Positions 19,401 through 64,000 of a stretch of 64,000 bases of DNA are shown here, one piece after another. Made by a program: the position numbers and the translations under genes. Numbering within the stretch: the first letter of the stretch is position 1; every line of letters begins with the position of its first letter. The notes below the pieces were generated by a model. That model searched no databases. It was not told where the DNA came from and worked only from the letters and a program-made list of their open reading frames with translations. Source of the stretch: Marsupella aquatica. Its lineage: Eukaryota; Plantae; Marchantiophyta. Where the stretch lies: the NCBI GenBank assembly GCA_973895155.1, contig OZ316896.1:14728684-14792683 (forward strand). The letters run 5' to 3'.

Positions 19401-21372
19401 CAGGGAAAATTACCGGGAGGTAAAAGTCTCAACCGAAAGGGACGGGAGCGCAGGGAAAGGGTAGGACGGAAGTGGCGGCTCGAATCGCGGGCCCGTCCTG
19501 CCCTCTCCGTGCTGCGCCGCGCTGTACCCGTTTACAACCCAATCACATGTCCACGAACTAAACTCCCGTGGATTCTAGTCTCCGCTCCCCTGTGGAATGG
19601 TTTCTCCCGGCCCGGCCACCCGTGTCCCTCTTGCGTTGCTCAGTCGAGGACTCCGTTAGATTGCCCGGGCCAGCCCCGTCCCTGCGGTGCGACACCCCGA
19701 GAGTCCAAGACGGGCTCGTGTAAGACCCGCCCTGTAGGTGAGTTTGTCGACCGGATCACCGGAGGGTGCTCCCTGCGGCCTGAGGTTAGAGGACAGTGAA
19801 ACTCAGAACGATGGCGGGGAACCGGTGGGTAAAAGGGGTTTTACGGCTCGCGTGGTTTGATTATTATTTTGATTGATCAGCTTTGCTCTCTCGCTTTTCC
19901 GTCTGGAGTTTCGAGTCTCGACGTCTCGACGTCTCGACTCGACTCCTCCCCCGGCCGAGAGACCAGCATAATAACAATGTCTGTACCGTCTCGCTGCTGC
20001 CGCAAACAATTGCGCGCTCTTTCCAAAGCGAGGCGGGACGGAGAAAAAGGGCAACAACGACGGGAATCGGGATTGTATGATGTTAGATTCCGACCACTGT
20101 AGCCTTGAATTCCTGGGACGCCGAAGAAAGAGAAAGGGAGCGACAGAGAGCAGGCTGTTTGGTGCACGGCTAAGGAAGAGGGAGGAGCGAAAGGGACAGA
20201 GGAGCCACAATCGAATGAAAGCGTAGGCGGTCTGTGCTCTGTTAATCTTTCGTCGTGCGGAGAAGATGTGGTGGTCGGTAGCCCACCCATCCGTAGTGGT
20301 GGTGTCCTGTCTAGCCCTGGATCTCTCCAAGTCGCCAGAGCAACACGGCTGATGATGGTGGTGGACGGGACAGTGTGATTGATTGGTTTTCTCGTGGACA
20401 CAGTGAAGGAGGAGTCCATCGCTGCCCATCAGCATAATTATTGGAAAGTACGTCGGATGATGATGGTCTAGTCCTTAGATGGTGCAACAACAGTAGGACC
20501 AAAATAGAGAAGATCGGGCAGGAACGGGTCCGTAGCGGCTAAGGAAGCGAGGAGGAGTATGTGTTAGGATGGAGGAGGTGAATCCGGACTTACTTGTCAT
20601 TCATGGAGCAGCGAGCACCAGGAGCTGCCTTTCGAATTATTGTTGAGGCGTTTATTCTGTGAAGAGGAATGAACTTTCGCTCCGTGTCTGGGTACTTTCG
20701 TGTCATGAAAGACTTGTGGCGGCGAAAATAGCGGGAGGGGGGGCCGGGAGGGGAGGCGCTCATATTCATTTCCGGAAGGTCTCGACCGAGTGACGAGAGC
20801 GAGGCATCAGGACTTGTGCGCAGTCGGTCAAGTCGTCGGGTTTCCGGAGGTAGGGCAAGAGGTGAGGAGCGTCTCGCGGGAGGGAGGGGGCGGGTTTGAA
20901 GGTAGAGACGAGGAGATGTGACGAAGAAGGATTATACTGACCTGCGTGCGGAAGCTGAATCTTGCTTCTGGGAACATTATTATACCCAGATTGCAAGGCA
21001 GGGATCCTCGCGCTTGAATTTGGCTAATTCTCTGTGCGAAGGAGTCGTATTTTAGGATTGTTGATTGAAATTTCACATGCCGCATTATTTTCCTTTCTGA
21101 CAGGTGGTAATAGTTGGGGTTTTGGGGATGGATGCTGCTGCCCTGCGAACTTCACTCTGTGGCTCAGGCTTTGCAGCCAAGTCCATCGAATCTTTCTTCT
21201 GGCATGTTTGAATTCGAGTTTATTGATGCTTGAAGTTGCGGAACGGAGGATAACTAAAGGCAGGAAGATGTGAATCGTCTAGCTGCATGGTTACTTGGCG
21301 TCCCTAGAATGGAAATTTGCTTCGAGGTGGTATGTGTCTTTTAACTAATCACATAGGAGCAGCCGGTTGAAG

Positions 21373-24300
21373 ATGATGACGGATGGAGAACCTGTTAGAG
21401 GCCGCAGACTCAAGAATCTGGGGTCCTCAGGTTTGGCCGTTGTCCTTGACCACGAAGAGAGTGGGAGCAGTGTGGTGACTGCGACTACATGTATGCTTGA
21501 CGATAACCCTAGTGGCCCGGAGCGGACTCTCGCACATGTGCTAGATGTGTCGAGCAGTGGTGCTGATTCCGTGGTCACTAGCGATAACAAAATTGATGCG
21601 GCCGCTTTCCAACTTCTTCTTCTGTCTCGATTGAATGGACTGCAAGGTGCGGATTTGAATTGTGACGCTGATAGAGAAGGTGTTTTCATTCATGAGGGCC
21701 CTGTTGGCCCCGGTGTGGTCATGATGGACCCGGGCAGTTCCTCTGGCATTATTAAATTCGACAAGCCATGTTTAGTGCTTGAGAGTCAGTCAAGCTTCAA
21801 TAGTGCCCGGGCGAATACCTGCGTTTGGAGTGGGCAGTGGATGTTCGAAGCCACTTTAGGGACGGGTGGCATTCAGCAGATTGGTTGGGCCACCGACGCC
21901 TGCCCATTCACCCAACAGAAAGGCGTGGGAGACGCAATAGATTCGTACGCTTATGACGGCAAGCGTGTAAAGAAATGGAATTTTGAATGTCAATCTTATG
22001 GCCAACAGTGGGTAGCAGGCGACGTCATTGGTTGTTGCATTGACCTTGATGCCGGCCAGATTTCATTCTATAGGAATGGCATATGGTTAGGCATGGCGTT
22101 TGAGGAGGTCCGCAGATTGGAGCCGAAGAAGGGATATTATCCTGCGTTGTCCATGGAGAACAATCAACGCTGTGAGCTCAATTTTGGAGGAAGACCTTTC
22201 AAGTATCCCCTGAGTGGGTTCCCTGCGATTCAGGCTCCTCCGACCGTGCATATAGACAGGGAAGGAGGCAGCGGGCTCGTATCTGCAATTGTCAGAGCAA
22301 AATACCTTTTAGGATGTCTCCAGCGTCTCGTTCAACTAGGAAGCCGGGAAGTGGCTGCCGCAATGGCTCCAGTTGAGAGGTTGAAGAGGTACACGCCTTT
22401 GAATGACGATGAGTCGTTTATCGTTGGCTCAATGATAATGGAATTGCTTCAGCCTCTTCTTTGCACGGTTGTTGGGTCTGACTCTCTAGAAGACGGGGAT
22501 TCGCGTGCAAGCGCCGAGTACATCATTTGGGGAGCGTTAGTGCCCTTCTTAATGGACACCCTCAGATTAGAGGCTCCTCACGATGCTCCTAGCGTTGATC
22601 AGGCATTGGAATTCGTACTTCCCTGCCTGGACTCACTCGGGTTTGAAATTGTCATGGATGCACTTGCCTACGGCTGTAGAACATCTCCGTTCACATTAAC
22701 GGACTACCCATACACCGGTTCTTATGCATACCTGGCTTTGGCGTGCCATTTATTGGAGCGGGAAGACTTCATGAGCTACTGGTGGAAATCTAGTAACTTC
22801 GAGGCTTGTCTAGAGGGTTTACTGACCAGAAAGGGCCCGAACAAGCATGATTTGGAAGCTCTCATGCCCACTGTCTGGTGGCACGGCTCGCGGGAGGATC
22901 TGTGCTCGGAGTCGAAGATGAGGCATGCAGCTTCTGCTTTGGCCAAAGCAATTGCCAAGGTACTCGAGTGTCAAAAGTTCAGTTTTCTTGGGCTTTATTT
23001 GAATACGGTAGGACTGTAAAGGAAGAACGAAATTTGTTGTGTTGGCCTGCCACTTTCTCTCCTTATGAGGAAGCTTATGAGGAAGCTTCTCCCAGGGCTT
23101 CATCACTACGAGCGCATACCAAGCACTGCTATGTTTATAATTATTTGCATACTATGTCACTCACGAGGTTGTTTGGTGCTGACGTTAATCAGGTCGAGGA
23201 GTTACATTGGGAACTATGCCGAACTTTGCTCCACTTCATTCCACCTTCGAACACTGGTGCAGTGACTGCATCTTCATCACAAGTACCCGGGGTTTTGTTC
23301 AGAAAGTTCCTGCGAAGACTCATGTTGAAAAATAGTGGGGCACACAGAAATGTGCCTCCACCAGGTCTTTCAGATAACTCAGTGTTAGTTACTGCCTACT
23401 ATGTACTGCTCCGGTTTCTCTCAGAAGGTCTCGAGGGAAATAAGAACAGTGATACGGGGGAAGCTGGCAAAGAGCAGCAGGATACATGTGCTGGTTTTTT
23501 ACATCGAGTAGGGAAGCGGACATTTCCTGTCAGTCTGTTTCTTAAAGAAACCTCATATTCCTACGATTTTGCGAGGGTTGGGGGAACTTTTAGCCACTTG
23601 ACGAAAACTCTTCCAGTGGCTGGGGAAGACTTTGCCGATGTGGAGTGGGAGGAAAGTAGCATGGATGATGGAGGTAATATAGTCAAGCATGGTGGAAAGT
23701 TCAAACCAGCTTGTTGTTTAGACTTGATGGACAACTCAATCAGCAATGATCTCAAAAGTATCCCTGAGAAGGCTGGCGTCAGCACACACGCCGGTAGCAT
23801 CAGTGAGAGAAGTAATAATATGAGCAATGACTGTGCTGCGAGAAGTTGCAATGGGATTGATGAAGATAAACCTAGTTCTAGTGGAAGGGTGGAGTCAAAT
23901 ATGAGAAGGCGTTCGTCGCATCATCATAGATCTGAAAGGGCTGGATTTAAAGCGATCAAGGATCTCTCCGAAGCCATCAGAGAGGAAGAGCTGTTGGACA
24001 TGCTGGTGCTACTCTACCATCTTGGGCTTGCCTCCAACTTTAAGCAGGTAAGTACCCTGGTCTGATTCTGCGTTTGGAGGTTTGGAGATATTTTGTACCA
24101 GCCCCCGGGACTAAAGTGGGGAACACTTTGGTGCCAGTGAAAGATTTGCTCAGAAGGTTTAATGCTCGAATCCAAATGTGAACTATTTAGTTGCTTTCTG
24201 GAGCAAATAGGTTAGAGAAGATGAAGGTCTGACCCACGAAATGTCAATCCAAGTCTGCCACTAGGAATGCTGGCATAATTTCAGTATCCATGAATCGACT

Positions 24301-32509: not shown

Positions 32510-38042
<5,533 letters not shown>

Positions 38043-38118
38043 CCCTCCTTTGCCTGGCTGGGGATGGGAATTGGGAAAGGGAGTGAATAGACGAGCCTCT
38101 GGAAAATGCTTGTAGGAC

Positions 38119-38432
38119 GATCTCTGTCCGTCCTCTGAGTCTCTCTCCGGTCTGCAACTCTGACGTTGCTGACGGGTGGCTACTGTAAGGCTTAAACCCC
38201 AAACCCTCCACTAACCGGGGTTAGGCCAGGTTGTGGTTCCCGTATGTGGTTTGGTTTCCACCATAGTGGGAGCACCTATCTCTGTCCGTCCTCTGAGTCT
38301 CTCCGTCTGCAACTCTGACAATGATGACAGGTGAGTACTGTAAGACTTAAACCCTGAACCGTCCACTAACCCGGGTTAGGGCAGGTTCTGATTCCTGTAT
38401 GTGGTTTGGTTTCCACCATAGTGGCAGCACCC
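38119..38432. repeat. ~158-bp tandem duplication in the FtsHi2 5' UTR/promoter
   Basis: ATCTCTGTCCGTCCTCTGAGTCTCT...GTATGTGGTTTGGTTTCCACCATAGTGG present twice, starting near 38120 and 38278. Confidence 0.85.
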
Positions 38433-45829: not shown

Positions 45830-47447
45830 CAGTGAAAAACAAAGTACAAGGAAAGGAAAGGAAAGAAAAAGAGGTTCAAAGACAAATATACACATTTTTT
45901 ATATACAAAGGGACCAATCAGAGTACAAATGAACAAACAAAAGAGGGTCCAAGTGGACAAAACCAATCGAAAAAGAAATGAGCAAAAGGGAACCACTAAA
46001 CACCAAGAAAGAGGAACTAAAAGTAAGAAATGAGCAATAGGGAACCCCTAAAAACCAAGAAAGAGAGACTAAAACTAACCCAAGCGGACCGAGGTCCTCA
46101 TCATTCCTAGTGAATGTGGCAAAAAGCTAATGGTCCACATCAAGGGTCAAAACTAGATCGGCAAGTGGGATTGGAACATCCTCTAGGGGAGCTAGCCGCT
46201 GCGGAGGCACACTAGCACCCACTGTAAGAGATCGATGATAGATGGCCCGAGCTTGAGCACGCTGCAAGGTGACTGAAATGCGTCGGCAAAAGTGCATGGT
46301 CAAAATAGAAAGCGGGGGTCCGGTGGGACCCATGCAGCCATGAACATCCCGGGCAGCTTGCCGAAGAAGCCCATCAAACTGAGGATGAAGACGCCCAAAT
46401 AGCTCCAGAGCAAGGGGGAGGAAGTTGTCGGATGAAGCTCGTGCAGCATATTTGGCCTCCTTTGTTGTTGCCGCACGTGACGCTGCTGCCCCTGCCGTAG
46501 TTGCCGCTGTCCCAATGATGTCTTGGCGCAATGGGTTTGCCACCACTACATCTGCCAATGTACGTTGACCCTCACGGACCATGGTAAGATCCACCTGTAA
46601 CCGCTGTGATGGAGGACCAGGTAACTCGAGTACCACCTCCCACCGCACGCATACCAAAGAGCCAGAGAGAACCTGAGCAGTCGCATCTCGCACAGCGTCG
46701 TGAACAATAATGGTTTCACCTCCCAAACTGCACCGAAGAAGATGGACGCCTGTGGCATCACAAGGCTTCCCACAAGTGCACGAAGGGGGTAAACCTGCAA
46801 GAAGTGGGTGGGGCAGCCCCATATGAAGACACATGGCTGTGGAGAACTCCGTTGAAGACATCCGCAAATGAGGAATGACTGGATTGGCCTGAAGCCATCC
46901 ACCTGCGCCCTTCCCTCCGAAAGAAAGAATCCGAGCTCGGTCCGTGTCAGGTGCCTCGGAGAGGATGCTGGAAAGGGTGAAAGCGTGCATATACCCAGCG
47001 AGGTCTGCCTGAAGACAAACGGGATCCAAGGATAAAAACTCCTGAAAAGAAGGTAACGCGGCGCGAACGGGATCTGGTAATGAGGACCGCGCTGCGCGCA
47101 AATGAACCTGAAACGGGAGGGAACCCTCCTCTACCTCCATGAGAGATGAAAGTAAAAAAGGGCGATCCTCTATAAGAAAATGATCGGCCAACAATGAGAA
47201 GGCGGCCGCCCACGCACCCAAAAAGGCCAAAGGTGCAAGGCTCTCAATGGAAGTAAGCTCAAAACCACCCTGCAAAATAGGAAGACTGAGTTGTTGATGA
47301 AGCCACAAAGATGAGAGCAACGTACCCGGCCCCAAAAGAGAGGCCAGGGTCTGACGAATGGAGACATCAAATGCTCGAAGGTGGATACAAAGATCCTCGG
47401 TAGGGGGATGCGTCCTAGCCAGATAAGACGCACGAGGGTGGATGCAG
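45830..47447 (-). mobile_element. 5'-truncated RLE-type (CRE-like) non-LTR retrotransposon: post-RT region, CCHC knuckle, restriction-like endonuclease and 3' UTR
   Basis: Open frame ending at 46127 with CTCGKPCDATGVHLLRC..HDAVRD, VDLTM..LADVVVANP..KEAKY, FLPLALELFGRL and RRISVTLQRAQA; 3' boundary approximate. Confidence 0.85.
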
Positions 47448-47449
47448 CC

Positions 47450-48168
47450 GCTCCCCTTGAACCAAGAAAACGACCAATCACTCAAACTATAAAATAATTC
47501 TTGAACCCAAGAATTCAAAATAACAAGACGTCTAGTAACTACTCCTATTAGGGCTGGTAGGTAGGCCCCACAGCCTAAAGCGGCATGTTTATTTTGGAGA
47601 CACGTCAAATAATTCTATCTTTTTATTTACAGCGAAAAAGCCAATGACTTTCCTCTCTCCAGCTATAATTCTTTTTATGGGTACCTTTTTCGTTTTATCA
47701 ATGGTCTTAATTTACGAGTTTCTTCACCTGGCCACTTGGCTTTTTTCAGAGGCTCCGGAAACGGCCCAGACTTGTAAAGTTTCCCAGCCCAAGAAACCTG
47801 GCTGGATAGCCGAATCCGGAGTAGACATTGGACTCTCCATCTCGTAATGGTGCAGAACCACCTTATAGTTATTTGGAATGTTCAGCCTGCTCTTGGTATT
47901 TGGGCACATAAAATGAGTTCCAAATTTATTAAACGCCTTTTTTCTAGTTCGGAGCTTCCATTCCAAAGCTAGGGTTAGAGCGCATGAGGTAACTAGGAAC
48001 CGTTTCTCTATTCGTGGCTGACGGGTACCTAGTACTTAGCCTCATATATTGATACATTTTTATGAACAGAGCAACCCTTTTTCCCATTCTGTCGCCCCCG
48101 AGTGAAAGTTGGGGGGGGCCCGAAAGGCGCACAGTGGCGCCCTCTTTTCCCGGCAAGCGCGACGGGGG
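47450..48168 (-). pseudogene. Fragment of an organellar-type group II intron maturase (domain X); probable NUMT
   Basis: One minus frame reads FLVTSCALTLALEWKLRTRKKAFNKFG, matching the SCALTLAxKxKLxTxxKxFxKFG domain X signature of mitochondrial intron ORFs; a GC-rich cluster at 48095-48168 resembles bryophyte mtDNA intron inserts. Confidence 0.7.
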
Positions 48169-49920: not shown

Positions 49921-50950
49921 AAAGATGTCGAGTGATAAAAAGATGTTGATGTGATAAAAAGGTGTGGAGTGATAAAAAGATGTCGAGTGGTAAAAGGATG
50001 TCAAGTGATAAAAAGATGTTGAGTGATAAAACGAAGTCAAGTGATAAAAAGATGTCGAGGTGATAAAAAGAAGTCGAGTGATAAAAGAAGTCGAGTGATA
50101 AAAGAAGTCGAGTGATAAAAGATGTTGAGTGATAAAAATATGTCAAGGTGATAAAAACATGTAAAGCTTGCAAGACAAGGCTGGGAACTGATTGCCAGAA
50201 CGTTTCCAGATCTGATCACTTGGCCTGCTGGGGAGTTGAAACCTATGATGGAGGCTTTTGCTGGACACGGTCTTGCCCGCTCCTTGATAGTTTTCATGGT
50301 TTATCAAGTACTATGGCATATTTGGCTTGCCAGGAATGAGAGTGTATTTAACAATGGTAGAAGTAGAAACTTTGATCTGCTAAAGATCCTTTCAGAAATG
50401 ATTGATCAATTACATCGACTGTGTGAGGACTCTGGCCCCTGCAACCGGCGCACGCGACTGCTGAGGACCAAGGACGCCTGAATTGGGTTTTGCGGACGGA
50501 GGCACGGTTCACACTTTCTCTCTGATTAATGACACGGTTATACAACTTAGTCCCCTCTTAGACAGGGTCAAAATTTTCCTTGCTATGGGCTATTCCCTGG
50601 TTGGGATGCTAGGGGTTGAGCTGCTACCTGCTCCCGTTCGTTGCTGTTTCTTTGACTCTTCACTGCCTTGGAGTTTCTGCTAGGACCCATCAAGAGAGCA
50701 CACTAGAAGTATTTGGGATCTTTAGCGGTCATGTTGTGGATGTTCTACTGGCTCTGGCTCTGGCCTGCCCTCACCGGGCGTCTTTGTTGCCTTTTTGGCT
50801 CCCAATCCCGTAGGGTTTTGCGGGTTGTTTTGTGAAAAAAAACATGTTGAGTGATAAAAACATGTCGAGGTGATAAAAAGATGTCAAGGTGAAAAAAAGA
50901 TGTCGAGGTGAGCAAAAGATGAGCAAAAGATGTCCATGAGAGAAAATATG
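49921..50950. repeat. 17-19 bp minisatellite GATGTCGAGTGATAAAAA inside the Helitron, split by the L1 fragment
   Basis: About 13 units at 49921-50160, with further units at 50838-50950. Confidence 0.9.
50163..50837 (+). mobile_element. 5'-truncated L1/Tx1-type LINE 3' end
   Basis: Encodes VLWHIWLARNESVFNN (conserved ORF2 C-terminal WxIWxxRNxxVF), ends in a short A tract, and is flanked by AAAAACATGT at 50153-50162 and 50838-50847 (TSD). Confidence 0.8.
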
Positions 50951-52249: not shown

Positions 52250-54800
52250 GGAAAAACTAAACGTAACCAAGGAAAAACTTCTCAGTAGAAAATGAACTGC
52301 CACCAAAATTTATGAAACAGGACAAAACAAAGTACAATGAAGCGAACGAAAAGAGGGCCAAAGAGGACAAACACCCAACAAGTAAAAAGAAAAGCAAGTG
52401 CAACCTGAAAAAAGGAAAAAGGGAAAAGTGTCTAACGCTACACAAGTGCAAAGTACTAGTGTCCAACCGTCTGCAGAGTTATAGTAGCGCCCACTGTGAG
52501 GGATCGATGATTAATTGCTCGAGCTTGAGCACGTTGTAAGGCCATTGAAATGCACTGTCAAAAGTGCGTGGTCAAGATGGATAGGGAGTCCGGGGGGACC
52601 CATCCGTCCATGAATATCATAAGCAACATGTCGAAGAAGCCCATCAAACTGATGATGAAGATGCCCAAATATCTCAATAGCAAGGGGGAGGAAGGTATCA
52701 GATGAAGCTTGAGCAACATATTTTGCCTCCTTTGTTGTGGCCGCTTGGGATGCCGCTGCCCCTACCATTGCCGCCACTATCTCGATGATATCTTGGCACA
52801 GAGGGTTTGCTACCACAACATTTGCCGAAGCACATTGACCATCACGGACCATGGTTAGATCAACCCGTAATCGATGTTTTACAGGACCAGATAGCTCAAG
52901 CACCACCTCGCGCCTTACGTGTACCAAAGACCCGGAGCGTACCTAAGTACCCGCCTAAGTAGTAGCATCTCTCAGAGCATCATGAACAACTATGGTTTTG
53001 CCTCCCAAACTGCACCAAAGAAGATGGCCCCTGTGGCATCACAAGGCTTCCCTCATGTGCAGGAAGTGGCATGGGTAAACATACAAGAAGAGGACAGTGG
53101 GGCAGCCCAGACAAAGACAAATGTTTGTTGAGACTCCTTTGAAGACATACGCAAATGAGGGATGGCTAGATTGGCCTGAAGCCACCCTCTTGGGCCATTC
53201 CCTCCGGAAGATAGAATCCAAGCTCGGTCCATTTCAGGTGCCTTGGTGAGGATGTTAGAGAGGGTAAAAGTGTGCATACAGCCAACAAGGTGAGCCTGAA
53301 GATGGACCCAAGGATAAAAACTCCTAAAAGGAAGGTAACACAATGCATACAAGATTCGATAGTGATGATAACACCTCTTGCAAATGAACGTGAAATGGGA
53401 GGGAACCCTCCTCAACCTCCATAAGAGATGAAAGTAAAAAGGGTTGATCCAACAATGATGCAATCAGCCAACAATGAGAATGAGGCTGTCCACAAACCCA
53501 AAAATGCCCAAAAGGCTAAGCTCTCAATGGAAGTAAGCCCAAAACAACCTTCAGAAATTATAGGAAGTGTGAGTTGTCAATGAAGCCACATAGATGAAAG
53601 CAAAGAACCAGGACTTAATAGAGAGGCAAAAGTCTCTCAAATAGAAACATCAAATGCACGTAAGTATAGACAAAGATCCTTGGTAGGGGCATACGTCCTA
53701 GCAAGATGAGATGCCCTAGGGTGTAGACATTGCAGATGGAGCGGGGCTAGCAGGGGCTAAAGCAACCTATAGAGCATCAACAATAAATGATTAGCAAAAG
53801 GTCATAGTAATGATAGGGGAGTCAATGACTCGAAGACCTCCCACTGGATGTAAGAACCCAAGAGGAAGTGCCAAATTGGAGGGTAACCCAGTTGGACTCT
53901 AAGCACATTGTCAACTCTTCACCAGTTGAACCCTTAAACCAAGGGCCATCAACTGGTCTGAAAGGGTGGTGAGGGTAGAGGCAACGTAAGTGGGGGGACC
54001 AATAATGTGGAAAGCGAGGGGAAAATACACTGGGGGTGGGCACTAGAGGTTGCCCATAGAGATGTAAAATGGGCAATGACAAAAAGAGGCACGCCCAAAG
54101 CGTCACCCTACTTGTTACCTTCTGCAAAAAAAGGTTAATTAGTATACTCTTGTGTAGAGGTGTGATGACTATAAAGGAGAGGGTTCTCCAAACCATAAAA
54201 CAACGGACAAATTGGATAAGGGACTGAATGTTTGGATATGTTATTCTCAATGCACGGAAAATGGCTGCTTGTGAGACCGTGTTGAAAGCATTGGACACAT
54301 CCACTTGTAGAACAATCCAATCAGGGTTGAGATCCAAGGTAGTCCGAATACCCGCAATGACGGTCTGTCAACCTCCAGGAACGCCGATTGTAGACTGATG
54401 TGGAGAGAGATGACCTGATAGTGGACGAGATAGTGAGAACAATGTGATGTGAGTGTGTGAGACACAAGACGACTAAAAAACTCTCCAATGGCAATGGGCC
54501 AAACTTTGTGGATGACTTAGCCATGACTAGTAAACGCAATGTGCTCAAAATCCGAGAGACCGAGAGTGGTGGACCTCGCCACCCAACGCCCTCACCAATC
54601 CCAGCACTTGTGCCTAAGTGCCCTTGGTGCCCGATTGCCTCCACGGAATACCTCGAGCAAGCATCCAAGTGCCTCTAGCACTACCTGCGGCCCCTCCCAT
54701 ACGAAGCCGCACTTGCTCACCTACACGACCGCTAGTCAACGGTCCTCACTGTCTGCACAAGCAACCAAGCACCTCGGTAAGTAACCCCACCGGATCTAGA
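52250..54800 (-). mobile_element. Longer, heavily decayed CRE-like non-LTR retrotransposon with RT and RLE remnants
   Basis: RT remnants V(W)PIAIGEFFSRL (about 54470-54505) and IVLQVDVSNAFNTVS (about 54275-54320); RLE region RVDLTMVRDGQ..NVVVANP..KEAKY (52511-52927) is homologous to the 46-47 kb copy. Confidence 0.85.
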
Positions 54801-56533
54801 ACTCGCCAAGTCTAGCATCCTAACTCAAGCTCAACAGACGTTGGTACATAGGTCAGCGATAGGTCCTCCCGATGCCATAAGCCGGAACCAGAACCCACGC
54901 CCACTGTCCGTCCAGGATAGCTCCTTCCTTGGGCGCGGCCCGGGTTCCCCCTCGTACCTATCCATCACCAACTGACCGCCCTGACCTCAGGACATACTCA
55001 TGGCCCAAATAGTGTAGCTTGTCCTAAAGCTTGTCCCAAGCTTGTCTCAGCATGCCGGGACCATAATGGCCCTAACTCTAACAACCGCTCCCGGTTCGCC
55101 CCACTGATGGTCTAGGGATCGAGCGCCCTTGGGACTTAGCCTCCATACCTACTTGGCCTTGCCTCCCCAACGCAAGCTCCCTTGGGAGGCTGAACGCGGC
55201 TTGGCTGCTATTCGACAGGATTTGGCAAGCGGGCGAGCTAACACCCGCAAACCACGAGAACCCATGGCACCCCCGGACCCATCTGAGCTCAGGAGGGCGT
55301 AGCCCTCCTCAAGAGCTTTCCAATGCACCCAACTGTTGGAAAGATATCACCATTTCCGTTTGGCGGTTTCCCTTAGTGTCGCGACCACCGCGGCTCACGA
55401 CTTTGGCTCGGCCTTAGCCCCCAGGGAGACACCACTCCCCTCATATATGCTTCTGGAGACCTGCCACCCCCGGACCAACTTTGGTCCCTAAACATTTGGC
55501 CCCCAACCCGGATCTCATCGCGCATAATGGGCGCGCCACCAACTAGCAACGCCCATAACTTTCTTCATAGGCATCCGCAAGCGGAGTGCCTTAGCCCGTT
55601 GTGACCAGGCCGACCTGGTGCTCATGCCTAGGCCCTCAGGTCTGATTGCTGCTCGGGGCCCCCGACCGGCCCAACCCGGATCGGGCCACAACTTGCGCCC
55701 CAAGCGTCCATTGCCAATGACATCAACTCCATTGGCCTTGGGCCCAAGAGGAGCTTACTCCTAAGCCCTCAGAACTCAAAGTCCATCCGACGGTCCGGAT
55801 GACCATTCTTGAGCCCGGCCCAATTCCCCTTGACCCGACCAGCCATAGGCTAGTCAAAGTCCTTAGTTTGTGTCCCTAACTTGGCCCCTGGCCTCGCCAG
55901 TGCCACGTCTCATTGCCCACAAGTCTCCCCATGCTAAGTCCTCCCCGGATGGCCTATCCGGGCCTGGATCATAAGGGAGCTCGGTGTTGGAGTCAGCGAC
56001 ATCGGAGCTAAGTGTTAAGGTAGTCGAGTTCCGCGACTCCGAGGGAGGCAAGCGCCCTACTGGACTACACTGGAAAAAGGAAAATAAAACTAAAAAACTG
56101 TTAGGTATTTACTCAAGGTCTGTCATGCCGAGGGACAGTGCCTCTTGTGCACATCGGCATGTCCCTCGCATGCCCGCTAGGTATGTAGTTAGGGCTAGTG
56201 TACTATTTGAGTTAGTGTCATGTTCTTGTAGCGAGCCTGGGCCGTTCTTGAAGCAAAGGTGTTTATTAGTGTGATGCCTGGACCCGGTCCTACTTAGGGC
56301 ATGTTTTTCTTTGCCGTTTTTCAGTTCTTCTTGAATCGCTGTTGATAGAGCTCAGACAATGCTCGTCGGTTCCGTACACGGGATTCACACAGTGATTCGT
56401 TAGATGCTCCCGGCCGATCGTCGAGTTAGCGGTGAAGGGAAGAAGATTGCTCGTGGCAGTTTCAACAATTTTTGGTCAAGCCGTTGCAATTTCCTCGATA
56501 GACATTAGCAAGGCTTCAAAACTATGGGTTTAG

Positions 56534-57979
56534 TGTGGTGTTATGTGTATACTTAAGTGTATACACATAACACTCCCGTCGGGGCCCCTTTTTGTTAGTT
56601 TTTATGGCCATTTCCGGCCACGGCTGCCGCGCGACCGTCACCGGACTGCCTGCGCGACTACTTCCCGACTGCATAGGGCCGCGAGCCTGTTTTTCTCGCC
56701 TCACTTCCGTTGCTCCTGCCTTGCTTCAGCTGCGACTTGATTTGTGCCAGCAATTAAAGCAGCCAAGGGAGGGGGAGCGACTCCCTTCCTTTTTGTCCTG
56801 CAAGCAAGAGGGGATGGAGGGCACGAAGCCCTATGGAGTAATTAAAGTAGGGAGGAGGGGGAACCAAGGCAGGAGCGCAGGAGAGGGCACGAGGCCCTAA
56901 GCAGCAATTAAAAGGCGGGGGAGGGGAGTTCACATACGACTCCATTCTTCAGGAGTCCCGGCCCCTGCAGGGCACGGAGCCCACTGTCAGCATTGAAGAG
57001 GGGGGGAGTACACTTGACTCCTCTCACGGGAGTCTTCTGCCAAGGCACGAGGCCCAAATTGCATTGAAGGAGAGGAGGGGGGGAGTTTGTAGCCCCTTTT
57101 TGGGAGCACATAAGGTGGGGCACAAAGCCCTATGGAGGGCTCATGCCATTAAGAGGGCCCAGTTTCTTTTGCCCGCCTCGCGATGGCTTTTCTCTTCTTT
57201 TCGGCCACCTGCAAGCCTGCCTCGGCTATTTTCCCCTTTTTTGGCCTTTCTCGCTTTTTTGCCACGTGACGATCGACCTGCTGCCAGTTCCCGGGTCCAC
57301 ATCAGGCCGATGTGTATACACTTAAGGGGGCCCCTTTCACGTGTTGTAGGGCCCATTTCTTTCCGTTCGCTCCTACCTTGTTCTCAATTATGTGCATAGG
57401 GCACCGTACCGGCCGGTCCTTCTGTTTTTGGGTCCACATAGGGGCCCGAGGTATACACTTCAGGGGGCCCACTTTCACATTTTAGGGGCCCGTTTTCCTT
57501 GTTTGCGGCCGCTGATATCAAGTCATCTGCATACGGCTGCGGGTCCGGTGTATACACATCTGACGGTCAATTTGGCATATACATCAGCAAACGCATAGGG
57601 GGCTAAATTTGCGTTTTTAAGGATACTTTTTCTCTGACGGTTTTTCGACGGTGACAATTTTTCTGTGTGTTTACACATTTTGCACATTTTGGGTACATCG
57701 GGTATTGTCACACAGCATGTCAGCAGACAAGCCGAGAGGTAGAAGCTCATCGCCACCAACACCTTGGTACCACTTACGGAGTGATTCACGACCGTTGGTG
57801 CCAATTTCATTGGAATTCGACAATTTTGACGACGTCCACAGACAATAGCAGCACCCACACCACGCAATCCTTCTGCTACATTTGGTGGTCGCTTCACCAC
57901 TACTCCAAAGCCTGCTATCACTTCATTGCCATTTACCCTTTCTACATCAGTGGTTGTTCCTGCTTCACCGACATACAGC
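56534..57979 (+). mobile_element. Putative 5' LTR/leader of the Gypsy element, with palindromes and tandem repeats; boundaries unresolved
   Basis: Non-coding, directly upstream of gag; hairpin at 56541-56570; GTATACAC motif repeated; about five 65-85 bp units containing GGCACGAGGCCC between 56750 and 57160. No second LTR in the window to confirm. Confidence 0.45.
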
Positions 57980-59521
57980 ATGGATGCCAGCCACTCATCT
58001 GGCCGCATTGAGCGCTTCAGCAGGCGGCCAAGCACTATCTCTTTACGTGAGTTCAAATCCACTTTCTACACTGTCGTTTACGAATTGGAGTTGAAGTACG
58101 ACAGCAATTTCACAAATGCTTTTGCATTTAAGCAGCTAGCCAGGTATGTGCACCATGAGGCTTTGGATGTGTATGAGTAGCATTCTCAACGGCTGCTTGC
58201 TGTCACACAGTTGCCTAACCCTACCTATGCTAGTGCAATTGCGGCAGCCTCACAATTGACCTTACAGAATGCCATTGCAGCCCATGCTGTTGCTCCTGCC
58301 ACTTCCCCTCCTACTCCAGTTCCTACCACTACGCCAGTTACTCCCACTGTCTTGGCACAGGCTACATCAGGCATTTCTCCCACCATTGATTCTCTTGCCT
58401 TTGCTGATCCAGTGGCTGAGTTTTTCCAGGTTCTTGAATTGGAATTCCCAATCAAGGGTGCTGACAAAATCATGCATTTGGCCACCTTTGTGAGGTAGCG
58501 CGATGAAACCTTGAAGATGATGTATCACCGGCTTCTCAAGCTGAAGGAGGACACCCAGAGCATCACTGACCTGGAAGCTGCTCATCGCTATCTTCGCGCA
58601 TTGGAGGGCACACCAGCTCTCCATTCGCAAGTGTTGTAGCAAGTATTCTCAGAGTTTGGAGACAGCTACACCCTGCTCAATGTCTATGACACTGCTGAGA
58701 AACTTGAGTTGGCCCATGCACATTATGAGGCCAGTATTGCACGTCCACCGCAATCCAGGTACCAGGCTGCTGCCCCTACACTGGCCACCCCTTCCCGTGT
58801 GCCACAATATGGTTCCAAGACCAAGCCAACCCATGCTGCCTTCATGCTGCCATCTTGCAACTACTGTAGTAACCCCAATCACAAGGCTAATGAATGTGAT
58901 ATTGTTGTTGAGGACCTATCTTGTGATTTTTGCGGGAAAGTGGGTCACTTGGAGGCAGTTTGTTTTGTCAAATTGCCAGAGAGGAAGCAGCTACGACAAC
59001 AGGCCCCTCATCTCACTCCAGCTTCCACTCCCCCACCAGCTAGGAGGGCTCCTATTGCCTCAGTTGCTCCTCCTTCCAGTGGCAAAGCACCTGGTGCCAA
59101 CAAATCGCCCAAGCAGCAACAGAAGCAACCAGCTCAGAAGGAGGCTCACAATGCACAGGCAACTCCACTCCAATCTCTGACTCATGAGGTTGAGTCCCTA
59201 CGTGCCCAACTTGCCAACATCAAAGGCAAGTCACCTGCCTCTGCTGGTCCTTCTCAACCAGCTGGTCACGTGCAACCCATCCCTAGCCCAGGCACCACTG
59301 ACAATTCAACATCTCTTCCCCGCTCTTTCTATGGCTTGCCATTTGATGCTCATATGGGTGAGTGTGTGCTGTCCTCTGCTACACAACCTGGCCTTATGGC
59401 AGAATTTTCAGATTCATTCTGCCCTTCCTATTTTGCTTACCAGCAGGCCAGTGCTGCCTCCCGTATTGCTCCCACACGCCGCATTGTACAGGCTGATGGT
59501 CTTGCTCTGCTAGTCCTCTGA
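57980..59521 (+). pseudogene. Ty3/Gypsy gag with two CCHC zinc knuckles, three in-frame TAG stops
   Basis: A single frame from ATG 57980 with stops at 58178, 58496 and 58637; knuckles CNYCSNPNHKANEC and CDFCGKVGHLEAVC. Confidence 0.8.
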
Positions 59522-60099
59522 CTCGAGCCAGGGGAGCTTGGGCTGTCATGCCCCAATCTTTTCAGCCACTCACACTTGCTGAAGAGCGCACCTTGTTGGC
59601 GAGGGAGGAGGGAGCTGCAGCTACATCCATTCCACCACCAGGTGCTGCTAACATTTCACAGGGAGTTGTTTCTCCTGAGCTGCTTGAGCATTTCACCTCC
59701 GGGTTGGCACAAAAGATTCTTACAACTCCACTTTTCAGTTGCCATGATTTATAATTGGATGCTAGAGCTGTCATGAGAGCGCTAGAGGGCTCACTGCATT
59801 CTTTATCAACCCCTGTGCCACCAGTTTGGAGGTCCAATCTCATGTACATACTGGACCTTCTTCTTCTCCATTACATGCTTCCACTAGTTTGGCTATCCTA
59901 GTACCAATTTCCAGTGGTAGCGATGACAGTATTGCTGCAGATTGTGTGACCAGAGCTACACTAGATTCTGGTCATGCTACTCCATCTTTCTTGACTATGT
60001 TGTTGAGTGGAAAGACCGTGGATACTAACTCTCTTCACAAGGTACCTCATCATTTGCCAAAAGTGGTGCGTAGCGACAGGACTTCAGTTTCCACCACCA

Positions 60100-60470
60100 T
60101 TGCCATTGTTGACAATAGGAATTCAACGATCAAGTTGGAGGGTCACACTCCTGAGGTGGTCATGCTAGACACAGGCGCTCAACCAGTGATATTGGGCATT
60201 CAGTTTGCCAAGAAGATGGGACTGCTGACTGATCATTTACAACAATCCAGGTGGCACATTCTAACTGCTAGTGGCACTGTGTGTGTTGGGTGAGAGTTCT
60301 ACTTTACTCACTCTCACTTTTAATGGAGGTACAGATCAGGAACTGCATTTCCCAGTCAGATGTTTGGTTACCAATGCCACTACGTATGATGTGCTCATTG
60401 GCCAGGAGGCTTTGTTCCCACCAGGTTTTACCATTGACAACTGGCATGAGCATGCATACTACAGAGTTGA
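60100..60470 (+). pseudogene. Retropepsin-type aspartic protease of Gypsy pol (frameshift near 60285)
   Basis: VMLDTGAQPVILG (DTG at 60168-60176) followed by YDVLIGQEAL. Confidence 0.88.
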
Positions 60471-60828
60471 TTGGCATACGGATGGCTCACACTTGGGCTA
60501 CATTCCACTTGATTTGCATGGTGCCCATACACCTATGGCTCACCACTGTGTGTTGAAAGCAGTGCACACAGCTACCTATGTCAACCACCCATTGCAAGAT
60601 TGGATTGAGGAGGATGATGATGAGGTGGCTACTGCACATGCTACTACACGTATAGCAGCACTTTCCAGCAACGTGGACCATCAACCAGAGGTGGTACAAT
60701 GGCTCCAAGCAGCCCATGGACCTTTGGTGGCTGCATTGCGCAAATTTGAGGACCTTGGGCAGCACAATGGCCAACCAATAGCCCCAATCTTGAGTGCACC
60801 AGTTACATGGACTCCTCCTTCAGATGGC

Positions 60829-61765
60829 CTTACATTGCTTGAGCTTTTTGGTGGCATTTCTACACGCCTGGAAGCTCTCCTACAATCTAGCATGGTGGTG
60901 AAACAATACATCTCTGTGGATATTGATCCAGATGCAAGGCAAGTGGCTGAATCCCGTTTGCTAGAATTTTCAGAGCAATTTCCCCAACAGTTTCCACACA
61001 GTGCATGGAAGTCTGCATTTTCTTTCTTTCCTCTAGATATCCAGCTTGTCCAGCACTGGCACTTAACCCTTCTTGGCTCCCTTGATTTGATCATAGCTGG
61101 TTGGGAATGCCAAGGGTTTTCAGCTGCTGGTCACGGTGCTGGACTGCATGATTCTCGTTCTGGCCTTTTCACAGCATTGGTTCAGATTCTCACTTGGGCT
61201 CAATCCCTTTATCCTGCTGTTGGTTATATCATTGAGAATATTTAATCTCAGTTTGACCAACGTCCACAGGTCAAAGAGGATTTTAGTGTGGTCCAGCACT
61301 ACTTGGGACCACCCCTTCTCATTGATGCAGTGCATTGTGGTTCTTATGCACATTGTCTTCGTAACTTTTGGACTAACCTTGCACCACCTTCCTTATTGGA
61401 GTTAGCTCTTCACCACACATCCAGGGACACTAACCTCATAGTGGACCAGATTTTGGATCCTGACAGTTCTTGCCAACCAGTTACACGGCACGAGCCTGCA
61501 CCTTAGTATCCAGCCAATACCATTGGACAGCCCCGTGCTGCTTGGCCTACGTACATTTGTATCCTTTCCAGGTGCACATGCCTTTCAGGGTGATGGTCCT
61601 GGCCTGGTTTATCGACATTCTACCAGTACTTGGGATGAACCTAGTCCTGAGGAGAGAGAACGGGCTATGGGCTTCCAATCCGGTACTACAGGCCACACCC
61701 AAATCACCAGGCTGGTCAGGAATGCTTTACTTGGTAGAGTAATGGATCTTAATGCTCTCACTTAA
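60829..61765 (+). pseudogene. C5 cytosine DNA methyltransferase domain embedded in Gypsy pol between protease and RT
   Basis: Ordered motifs: I LLELFGGIS (FGGIS at 60847), II ISVDID, III LDI, IV LDLIIAGWECQGFSAAG (Cys at 61108), V DSRSGLF, VI IIENI (ENI at 61234), VIII AHCLRNFWTNL (61348), IX EPSPEERERAMGF (61637), X LLGRVMDLNAL (Gly at 61733). Stops at 61243, 61504 and 61763 and a frameshift near 61550. Confidence 0.88.
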
Positions 61766-62119
61766 CTTCTGGTCACTTGCATCCTTTTTCAGATGTACAT
61801 TCATCCAGCATCTGGAGTTCCAGCTCTACCACTCCATGGTGCTGCTACATGGCATCTAGACCAGGTGCACTTACCTCTATTCAACACTCACCGCTTCAGT
61901 CCAAGTGTTGGGGGGGAGGAGGTCCCTTGTAACGTGGCTGACAATATTTCTGAGTTTCATGGTGTGGACCAACTCAGATCAGCAGGTACAACAGGCCTTG
62001 GAGAGGCCTCATCACCTTATCAACAGCATGCTAGCAACTTGGACAGTGGAGAGGCTGGCACTTCTAGCTCTTCAAGCACGAGTACATCAGGTCTTATTCC
62101 TAGTGTTGCCAACTACACA

Positions 62120-63010
62120 TTCATCATGGGCAACCACCTGAGTAAAAGACAGAAGGACCAGCTGCTGAATTTGCTCCTCAAGCATGAGAACGTGTTTGCT
62201 TTCTCTATGAAGGACTTGGGTAAGAGCAAGACTATGCAGTTCTCCATTGAGTTGGCTGATGAAACACCGTTCTTCAGGCGGAGACATCGTTTGAGTAAGC
62301 ATGAGTGGCAGCTGGTGGATGAGAGGTGCCAAGAGCTCTATGAAGCTGGTCTTATTCAGCCATCTACATCAGATTTTGCAGCAGCTACAGTGATGCCAGC
62401 AAAGAAGGATTCCAGTGGATTGTGGACAGAGAAGCGCATGTGTGGGGACTACAGGCCACTGAACCTGGTCACACCCCAGGACATGTACCCCATGCCACGG
62501 CCAGAGGAGCTATTTGACAGCATTGGAGACTCAGACATCTTCACTCTTGTGGATCTAAGGCAAGGCTTTAACCAGATTTTGCTGCTTGCAAAGGACCGCA
62601 AGAAAACTGCTTTCCATGGTAGTAACCAACTATGGGAGTGGTTGGTGATGCCATTTGGCTTGAAGAATGCGCCCATGTTCTTTCAAAGAGTCATGGACCA
62701 GGTTCTTCAAGGTGCTGAGTTTCTGAAATGCTACATTGATGATGTGTTGGTCCACAGCAAAGGATTTGACCAGCATCTACTTGACCTTGAAGAGCTATTC
62801 ATGAGGCTTAAGAAGGTGAACCTAAAGATACACCCCAAGAAGTGTGAATTTGCTGTCATATCAGTAGTATACCTTGGGCACTGCATTCTTCCAAATGGAA
62901 CCATGGCTCACTGGGCCAAGGTGGTATCCATCTTGGAAATGTCCACTCCTACTAATGTTCACACTCTTCGGAGCTTTATTGGGTTGTGCAATTACTACTG
63001 GATCTACATC
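62120..63010 (+). pseudogene. Gypsy reverse transcriptase
   Basis: RMCGDYRPLN, VDLRQGFNQI, KTAF, VMPFGLKNAP, YIDD (62732-62743), KCEF..VYLGH, LRSFIGLCNYY. Confidence 0.96.
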
Positions 63011-63535
63011 AATTCAAAGATTTCAGTACCATTGCACATCCATTGTATGCTTTGTTGAAAAAGAATGTGACTTGGACATGGAGTACAGATGCTGAGGCAG
63101 CATTTGTCACTTTGAAGGAGAAGCTCTCAGAATACCCGGTGCTGAGAAGACCTGATTTTAGCAAGGTCTTTGTGCTACACACAGATTGGAGTGCCCTTGG
63201 GATTGGTGCCATTCTGGGCCAGCATGATGAGGAAGGTAAAGAGTACGTCATTGCCTATGCATCCAGGAGCAACAATCAGGCAGAGAGTCATTATTCTTCG
63301 TATGAGGGTGAATGCCTTGCTGTTGTGTGGGCTATCATACATTACAGGCCCTACCTCTATGAGACCAGGTTTATCCTCTACACCGACCACCAGCCCTTGA
63401 AGTGGTTGATGACCAACGACAAGCTTACTAGCAAGCTTGCTCGTTGGGCGCTCATACTCCAGGAGTATGATTTTGAGGTAATTCATAGGCCTGGTGTGAC
63501 ACATCAAAATGCTGACACTATGTCCCGCAACCCTT
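63011..63535 (+). pseudogene. Gypsy connection and RNase H domain (after a frameshift); no integrase in the window
   Basis: VLHTDWSALGIGAIL, IAYASR, YSSYEGECLAVVWAI, LYTDHQPL, LARWALILQEYDF, NADTMSR. Confidence 0.93.
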
Positions 63536-63567
63536 TGATTGCCTCTGATGATTCCTCAGATGCACGG

Positions 63568-64000
63568 TGTCGGGGGAATCTTTAGTTCTTGGGAAGCACC
63601 AAGCTCTTGTTTTTCCTATCTTGGAAGAAACCTTTCCAAAGTATGTATTTTCTCACCTCACATTACCCTTGCGATCCCCTTTGTCAATCAATTTTTCTCA
63701 CCATTATCCTCTAAAATATCTCTCACGGCCTTTGTTCCACTCTACGATGAGTGACTTCCTCACACTAAGCCTCGAAGCGGCCTATCCTCTTTCCACATAA
63801 CCCAAGTCAAGTCATAGATTGCAATTTCCAATGAATCCTATAATTAGATAAGTCAATTATAGAAAACAAAGACTATGATCTTAAGATTTACTATAGATGA
63901 TATAATCACAGACTCTGGCATCCTAAGCATAACATTGTATCTTTCATCTCCATATTTTCTAACTAAAATATCTCTACAATCAACCTTCTTACGACATACC
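63568..64000. mobile_element. Probable nested insertion (LTR-like start) interrupting pol before integrase
   Basis: Coding character stops abruptly at TGTCGGGGG (63568), followed by AT-rich non-coding sequence. Confidence 0.45.

Follow-up and report, generated by a model that had tools for sequence, protein, structure and literature searches.

Results

Domain architecture of the Marsupella element

The window analysed here, a 64,000-nucleotide stretch of Marsupella aquatica contig OZ316896.1 (positions 14,728,684 to 14,792,683, forward strand), carries towards its 3' end what is almost certainly a decayed and interrupted Ty3/Gypsy copy of a methyltransferase-carrying retrotransposon family. 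An earlier note on this DNA had proposed the order gag, protease (PR), DNA cytosine methyltransferase (DNMT), reverse transcriptase (RT) and RNase H (RH), and these domains do lie on the plus strand at the places it named. The start that it gave, 57980, is not correct, as the element begins at 56121 and gag probably near 57717. The features of the copy are as follows:

56117-56120, plus strand: four flanking bases, GGTC, predicted left copy of the target-site duplication (TSD), from the 4-bp duplications in relatives, the right copy falling outside the window
56121-56419, plus strand: terminal repeat A1, starting TGTCATGCC as in moss-type relatives (alignment)
56323-56336, plus strand: predicted self-primer (RNA 5' end), AGTTCTTCTTGAAT, which aligns with the moss-type primer with two differences
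56420-57716, plus strand: 5' leader, G+C-rich, with internal repeats, a low-copy variant, between A1 and gag as in relatives
57717-59520, plus strand: gag, broken, with two Cys/His zinc knuckles (58835-58999); 61% identity to residues 1-496 of relative P0002 and a weak N-terminal match to locus L005
60114-60453, plus strand: aspartic protease in two pieces because of a frame change near 60281; DTG at 60168
60817-61792, plus strand: DNMT3-like C5 cytosine methyltransferase domain, catalytic Cys codon at 61108-61110 (profile matches and alignment to relatives)
62156-63025, plus strand: Ty3/Gypsy reverse transcriptase with YIDD (profile and PDB matches)
63031-63563, plus strand: RNase H, followed by the first part of the linker towards integrase; beyond 63563 no similarity to relatives is seen
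63568-64000, no strand assigned: a different repeat, starting TGTCGGGG, which appears to interrupt the element, as a sister contig runs past 63563 with other sequence

The Ty3/Gypsy assignment made in the earlier note is upheld by the matches of open reading frame (ORF) 61766-63058 to RVT_1 (E 4.5e-27) and of ORF 62956-63585 to RT_RNaseH (E 1.2e-38), and by the Ty3 RT as best PDB match of the window RT (E 1e-62). ORF 60265-61245 holds the C-terminal half of the protease and the N-terminal half of the DNMT in one frame, as had been claimed, and in the profile check that the note had proposed it passes the curated PF00145 cut-off of 22 with 26.9 bits (E 4e-6). The DNMT C-terminus and the RT do share a frame interrupted by a single TAA at 61763, but the domain is not otherwise intact: besides this TAA, its third stop, it has two earlier ones at 61243 and 61504, and its frame changes near 61555. 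Similarly, the claim that all canonical C5 methyltransferase motifs occur in order is correct as to order but not as to sequence, since motif IV reads G-W-E-C-Q and the window copy has lost one Gly of motif I and one Arg of motif VIII, both kept by intact relatives; the motif numbers follow the usual scheme for C5 methyltransferases. The copy is dead: gag has stops at 58178, 58496 and 58637, a further stop lies at 59752, all in contrast to the unbroken natural relatives, and other frame changes occur near 59507, 59810, 60281 and 63030.

Compared with contigs from four public sequencing runs, the window copy differs mainly by A/G and T/C exchanges, such as deamination of a methylated copy would give, and its breaks are mostly absent from those contigs. 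The read depths of these runs serve as a guide to repeat boundaries only, not to copy numbers; they mark a separate high-depth repeat at 63376-63692 (run X5). No paired long terminal repeats (LTRs) were found at 40000-64000 of the window, and integrase, PHD finger and 3' repeats may lie beyond its end or have been lost.

A liverwort and moss family with one gag-pol frame

With the protease-DNMT ORF as query, 202 near-length and 4 longer relatives were retrieved, among them gene models of Calypogeia fissa (69%) and Sphagnum magellanicum. Protein P0002 (1214 aa) runs unbroken through gag-PR-DNMT, P0128 (1315 aa) through gag-PR-DNMT-RT, and locus L004 has an 847-aa DNMT-RT-RH frame, with the protease and integrase frames being the same frame; these natural unbroken frames bear out the view that the DNMT is part of the polyprotein. 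Of 600 matching stretches in a metagenome scan, 570 were confirmed and 80 loci retained. These loci are referred to as moss-type, being 85-94% identical to the S. magellanicum protein over the PR-DNMT part. The domain order is kept in 80/80 as far as each extends, and 31 of the 80 reach the integrase and PHD finger, the Pfam matches 3' of RNase H being rve, Integrase_H2C2 and PHD. In L004 the PHD finger is followed by a stop, no chromodomain comes after the integrase, and none of the 10 ORFs of at least 100 aa encodes a tyrosine recombinase. The liverwort-and-moss family has a single gag-pol frame comprising gag, protease, DNMT3-like methyltransferase, RT, RNase H, DDE integrase and PHD finger.

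The DNMT of the window copy is 70% identical to that of L004, with a nonsynonymous divergence (dN) of 0.22, likewise 0.22 in the protease, while synonymous sites are saturated (pS 0.75-0.78). The ratio of nonsynonymous to synonymous divergence (dN/dS) is 0.09 between subfamilies L001 and L004; for closer, decayed copies it ranges from 0.10 to 0.42 (DNMT) and 0.09 to 0.53 (RT). These substitution patterns indicate that the DNMT domain is under purifying selection in the family. A recent horizontal transfer between liverwort and peat moss, which 70% DNA identity might suggest, is unsupported in view of the saturated synonymous sites. A viral origin was also rejected, as two scans of viral contigs returned only distant DNMT matches (25-44% over partial segments).

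Some loci hold more than one copy. In L007 (124-10904) two tandem copies, 82% identical, adjoin, the first being cut after RNase H directly before the second A1, which would reflect a nested or a self-targeted insertion. Loci L063, L067 and L069 carry a second family copy, reversed, within the DNMT of the first.

Split repeats at the ends of the element

The repeat anatomy of the family is a more surprising feature than its DNMT, and escaped the earlier reading. Since the liverwort element shows no more than A1 and the priming pair, the remaining anatomy described here is that of the moss-type metagenome loci. Self-comparison revealed the order A-body-B-A-B in 6/23 long loci, A being ~290 bp and B ~180 bp. 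There are 15 distinct long-form 3' ends and 9 distinct 3' ends with B only, four of the latter having both element ends and a matching or near-matching duplication (L010, L056, L060/64 and L074). The earlier note had suggested a search for intact copies with integrase and paired LTRs; the relatives encode the DDE integrase, but instead of two complete direct LTRs around the body they have A-body-B-A-B or A-body-B. The ends are TGTCATG and CACGACA (TG..CA), of which the window shows the TG end only. Among 11 distinct two-ended insertions, the 4-bp TSD is exact in 7, which include L052 after its end was placed by hand, has one mismatch in 2 and is absent in 2. Two loci, L070 and L078, share the same 3' flank, yet one has the short form (B) and the other the long form (B-A-B), a difference attributable either to repeat recombination or to assembly collapse.

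Several signals occupy constant positions relative to these repeats. A TATA box lies 31-32 nt upstream of a 12-mer within A in 19/25 distinct 5' ends, and the complement of this 12-mer, with at most 2 mismatches, directly follows A1 in 20/25, compared with 6/500 control 12-mers. A G-run directly precedes B1 in 31/31 loci. The B1|A2 junction forms a palindrome, CA/TA-RY-TG/TA, in 17/17 loci, with a 2-nt spacer of constant length. By contrast, the A2|B2 joint varies: among 15 distinct insertions it is exact in 7, substituted in 1 and shortened in 7, by 1 to about 147 nt, and in L052 A2 continues directly into the final 29 nt of B. The shortened joints are scattered on a poorly resolved tree, requiring 4 changes against a shuffled mean of 4.8 (L069 was left out, and L076 sits on a long branch owing to an insertion).

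The A1 of the window copy aligns with the moss-type repeat at a score of 161, which none of 211 control segments reaches (mean 105, maximum 135); the nhmmer match is weak by itself (E 0.32). High read depth was observed within A1 at 56306-56417. The 3' end of A1 and the primer-binding site are lost in this copy, but three sister contigs from run X2 carry the exact reverse complement of 56323-56336 just before the place corresponding to 56422, precisely where the window copy has its gap. Compared with the moss type, the liverwort primer and its site carry two differences each, which lie at paired positions and compensate each other. In the leader, a near-perfect 36-bp palindrome occurs at 56538-56573, and a 17-bp inverted pair at 56552/57310 encloses 66-85 bp tandem-like repeats (span to 57326). 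The palindrome and the inverted pair were dropped as a candidate element end after A1 was found at 56121.

A proposed route through a two-LTR circle

The layout of these signals suggests how the split repeats may arise. Transcription would start ~32 nt past the TATA box inside A1 and end in A2. The first 12 nt of the RNA would in all likelihood pair with the site directly after A1 and prime the minus strand, as in Tf1, where the RNA 5' end is complementary to a site after the 5' repeat (PMC4600332); self-primers have also been predicted for moss and clubmoss Tcn1 elements (PMC6317226). The plus strand would be primed at the G-run before B1. As the two priming sites set the cDNA ends where A ends and where B starts, the functional LTR would be B+A and the linear cDNA B-A-body-B-A, with ends that would be devoid of integrase signals. 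Joining of both ends would give an A|B joint, and since the A2|B2 joint corresponds to exactly these two cDNA ends joined, the integrated element would be a permuted two-LTR circle. Integrase would cut the palindrome ahead of the body and insert the TG..CA ends with the 4-bp duplication, the observed product of this last step. It is probable that the family as a whole is explained in this way, as gag-pol elements with a DNMT whose A-body-B-A-B repeats derive from an end-joined two-LTR circle opened at the internal CA-NN-TG palindrome; circle-first integration, taken by itself, appears fairly likely.

HIV integrase has reportedly been linked to cleavage at palindromic 2-LTR circle junctions. 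The DDE integrase of foamy virus cuts the palindrome at such junctions, freeing processed CA ends (PMC1180852). In both viruses the palindrome arises where the two ends are joined, and cleavage there is a secondary route, whereas in the family described here it lies within the LTR, is templated and would apparently serve the normal route.

Fold and probable role of the methyltransferase

Among PDB entries, the domain from an intact relative matches DNMT3A/B/C best (E 4e-9), with DRM and M.HhaI ranking lower. The AlphaFold model of this domain has a pLDDT of 96, and Foldseek placed DNMT3A/B at the top (DNMT3A, E 1e-19, TM 0.73/0.84), consistent with a complete DNMT3 fold as modelled. The best ESM Atlas cluster, streptophyte DNA_methylase (score 0.96), adds little. 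The order of C5 methyltransferase motifs is unrearranged in the family. Across the 81 aligned sequences, the catalytic Cys of motif IV is invariant (81/81) and the Pro of the canonical Pro-Cys is replaced by Glu in 80/81, giving the family-wide G-W-E-C-Q; motif VI retains its Asn in 81/81 and its Glu in 75/81, and the glycines that bind S-adenosylmethionine are kept.

Judged by this conservation and the modelled fold, intact copies likely carry an active methyltransferase, and the most likely substrate would be the extrachromosomal cDNA or circle. Either released by the protease or bound to Pol, the enzyme could methylate this DNA and so mark the insert like host transposon DNA. Circle DNA would stay outside chromatin longer than ordinary cDNA, and the PHD finger would guide chromatin targeting; these last roles of DNMT and PHD finger are speculative. 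Evidence weighing against a methylating role comes from the Glu in place of the canonical Pro, from the Klebsormidium domain, which gave no methylation in yeast, a result that its authors called inconclusive (PMC5890265), and from the CpG observed/expected (o/e) ratios of moss-type loci, whose medians are 0.34 for the element (39 loci) and 0.25 for the flanks (33 flanks). The window element has a CpG o/e of 0.24, compared with 0.44-0.77 in five window controls; CpG depletion was rejected as a sign of self-methylation because the moss-type flanks are as depleted as the element.

It is somewhat unlikely that the DNMT has been kept for something other than methyl transfer to cDNA, for example to bind DNA, flip bases or serve Pol as a structural component, or that its only target is the CpG-rich B end, through which it would control the palindrome cut. 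Such roles would fit the non-canonical W-E-C, the result in yeast, the high CpG content of the last 60 bp of B (o/e 3.2), the rest of the element being poor in CpG, and the one-sided cutting of the palindrome. Conservation of the catalytic Cys, the motif VI residues and the cofactor-binding glycines, together with the complete fold predicted by the model, argues for catalysis instead, and the wider clade holds both W-P-C and W-E-C. A bolder reading, which must be regarded as quite tentative, draws on the same CpG-rich end of B: an ancient Gypsy lineage extending from chlorophytes to liverworts and mosses would represent the first LTR retrotransposon with circle-first integration as its normal route, its own DNMT3 methylating that end to choose the palindrome and pre-mark the insert.

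Other routes to the split repeats

It is unlikely that the repeats are instead of the DIRS/Ngaro kind, in which case an A1-to-B2 transcript would restore the ends by internal template switching and the A|B joint would be copied rather than newly joined. The repeat order is that described for DIRS-type elements and KnitGypsy-Dnmt3 (PMC5890265). Copying would also explain the single permutation, the alternative opening A-B-A-body-B being found at 0/25 distinct 5' ends, and it agrees with the exact joints in 7 of the 15 insertions. However, the conserved self-primer site after A1 and the G-run before B1 are LTR-type priming signals and define ends that exactly flank the A|B joint, while the joint variants do not track the tree. 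The family also has 4-bp TSDs and a DDE integrase and no recombinase, which is not the DIRS/Ngaro/PAT pattern of a tyrosine recombinase without TSDs. The absence of the alternative opening counts against the circle, since a symmetric two-LTR circle would be expected to open at its second palindrome as well. Two further points do so too: the moss-type loci are short-read assemblies, in which tandem repeats can collapse, and slippage in ATAT at a later time could account for the small joint deletions, the tree being poorly resolved.

The same integrated product, with the same ragged joint, would result if linear cDNAs were linked head to tail as dimers or concatemers, or if a linear cDNA had its left B piece removed and rejoined at the right end. 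Cuts at both palindromes of a linear cDNA could directly yield the short A-body-B forms with TSDs, and the tandem copy in L007 would fit as well. We saw no positive support for such substrates; the short forms could equally derive from B1-B2 recombination or assembly collapse, and intramolecular joining is the commoner fate of LTR cDNA, making these substrates improbable.

A probable old green-plant lineage

A search of 1.84 billion representatives gave 920 matches, only 20 of which were looked up for names, 6 yielding a species. Among the best 150, considering those of at least 280 aa, two layouts were found. The first, PR-DNMT-RT-RH-INT (INT, integrase), includes Klebsormidium nitens GAQ93235.1 and Closterium proteins, and the second, RT-RH-DNMT-INT-PHD, includes Scenedesmus pol proteins. 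GAQ93235.1 (P0282) has the order zinc knuckle-protease-DNMT, with 528 columns aligned at 28%, and its gag, protease and DNMT each align with P0002; its motif IV reads F-P-C, in contrast to W-E-C in the bryophyte family. The proposal in the earlier note of an old streptophyte lineage is supported by these Klebsormidium and Closterium proteins with the same order. That the DNMT of the window copy is a one-off capture or a nested host gene fragment, an idea favoured only by the broken state of the copy and by the choice of the 80 loci by their DNMT, among which DNMT-less sisters could not appear, is refuted by natural frames that run unbroken across PR-DNMT-RT, by the same DNMT position in Calypogeia, Sphagnum, Closterium and Klebsormidium proteins, and by a high-depth contig of run X6 that bridges DNMT and RT (61459-62325), and has next to no probability.

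The DNMT tree was built with FastTree only, from 92 rows of 99 extracted plus additions, with nine phage sequences solely as outgroup, leaving out near-identical cluster members and proteins with <230 aligned residues. In this tree the bryophyte DNMTs form a clade (6 rows, 99), and the link to Klebsormidium lacks resolution; the Klebsormidium protein has no RT and is hence absent from the RT tree. Proteins of the RT-RH-DNMT-INT-PHD layout, a sister type from chlorophytes, group together as a single clade with either domain (DNMT tree, 52 rows, 97; RT tree, 25 rows, 99). These sequences are most simply read as a single old Gypsy-DNMT3 lineage of green plants, within which the domain changed place once, but there may have been two separate captures, as the trees hold neither host DNMT3/DRM sequences nor DNMT-less Gypsy RTs. 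As the Klebsormidium and Closterium proteins share the gag-PR-DNMT order, the family in the window is very probably the land-plant branch of the KnitGypsy-Dnmt3 lineage.

Proteins P0246, P0312, P0177, P0191, P0288 and ~20 more are Gypsy polyproteins with the DNMT between RNase H and integrase, plus a PHD finger. This RNase H-DNMT-integrase layout, which includes Scenedesmus sp. PABB004, was not met in the literature covered. A Closterium gene model (P0172) combines rve and a Copia-type RVT_2 with a following protease and DNMT, and is probably two nested elements fused by annotation. P0005 and P0151 contain a 1988-aa non-LTR-like ORF with an RT fragment, a PCIF1-type domain, a C5 DNMT with a P-C motif, RNase H and a restriction-like C-terminus, and by its domains this type appears to combine two kinds of methyltransferase, adenine-like (PCIF1-type) and C5, in one retroelement protein.

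Genomic surroundings

The remainder of the window contains the following host genes:

21349-24065, plus strand: RKP E3 ubiquitin ligase (sequence identity)
36414-38210, minus strand: presumably an FtsH-like plastid protein

For the RKP exon at 21376-22968, identity is 92% with Calypogeia fissa, 72-73% with Marchantia and Riccia and 56-59% with mosses, a leafy-liverwort-like profile that agrees with the land-plant host named in the earlier note. Two decayed retrotransposon-like copies at 46127-47614 and 52400-54674 (both minus strand), which we take to be of the non-LTR class, are ~80% identical and 6.28 kb apart. Tandem repeats of 18-19 bp occur at 49921-50174 and 50840-50915. A very-high-copy repeat of unknown class covers 54565-56120, and the element sits in or beside it.

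Discussion

The family has the hallmarks of Ty3/Gypsy elements, namely the PR-RT-RH-INT order, a DDE integrase, TG..CA ends and a TSD within 4-6 bp, the integrase and both ends being seen in the relatives only. It shares with KnitGypsy-Dnmt3 of Klebsormidium nitens (de Mendoza et al. 2018, PMC5890265) an intronless DNMT3-like domain inside a Gypsy Pol, under purifying selection, and DIRS-like repeats, which are those of the moss-type relatives, the window contributing A1 only. The hosts differ, an alga there and a land plant here; PMC5890265 assigns the acquisition to the K. nitens lineage and, in its accessible text, offers no mechanism by which the repeats would arise. Tf1/Sushi and Tcn1 elements resemble the family in their self-priming site, Ty3/Gypsy RT, RNase H and DDE integrase (PMC4600332, PMC6317226), but have ordinary paired LTRs and a chromodomain where the bryophyte elements have permuted repeats, a PHD finger and a DNMT.

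Split-direct-repeat elements with a tyrosine recombinase are not known to encode a protease. They lack a DDE integrase, whereas the bryophyte family has a protease, a DDE integrase and 4-bp duplications. In common with it, PAT-like, Ngaro and SymbioDIRS-Dnmt3 elements show the A1-body-B1-A2-B2 layout and a presumed circular intermediate (PMC7192593, PMC5890265), and SymbioDIRS carries an active DNMT3 in Pol (PMC5890265). EpiLTRs of Cymbomonas and Euglena are likewise LTR elements with a cytosine methyltransferase and a chromatin reader, but their DNMT is sister to DNMT4 and accompanied by DAM and a chromodomain (bioRxiv 10.64898/2026.05.21.726589). In its accessible text the same preprint sets the streptophyte Gypsy-DNMT3 apart and names no bryophyte element, and later work, as far as accessible, mentions only streptophyte Gypsy-DNMT3 (PMC12344493; bioRxiv 10.64898/2026.05.21.726589). 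In agreement with the earlier note, which knew of no described embryophyte family, no bryophyte DNMT-Gypsy or split-repeat Gypsy element was found in the literature covered, a coverage outside which most subscription papers and Repbase fall; in the REXdb survey the terms methyltransferase, methylase and PHD are absent.

In the literature so far DNMT-bearing Gypsy elements are confined to algae; the present data extend them to land plants. DNMT-carrying retrotransposons, hitherto two curiosities of algae, are thereby placed in land plants, where their copy number is high, and an origin within the single lineage of Klebsormidium becomes unlikely. Permuted-repeat elements would escape LTR finders or be mis-sized by them, and DNMT pieces derived from elements can inflate host DNMT3 counts, the Calypogeia and Sphagnum gene models retrieved here being element fragments. 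The repeat anatomy points to integration from a permuted circle, a route commonly regarded as a dead end. By the evidence of the sequences, the DNMT domain appears to have been kept since before the moss-liverwort split and, as bryophytes are tractable, the benefit that its own methyltransferase brings to a transposon can be put to the test.

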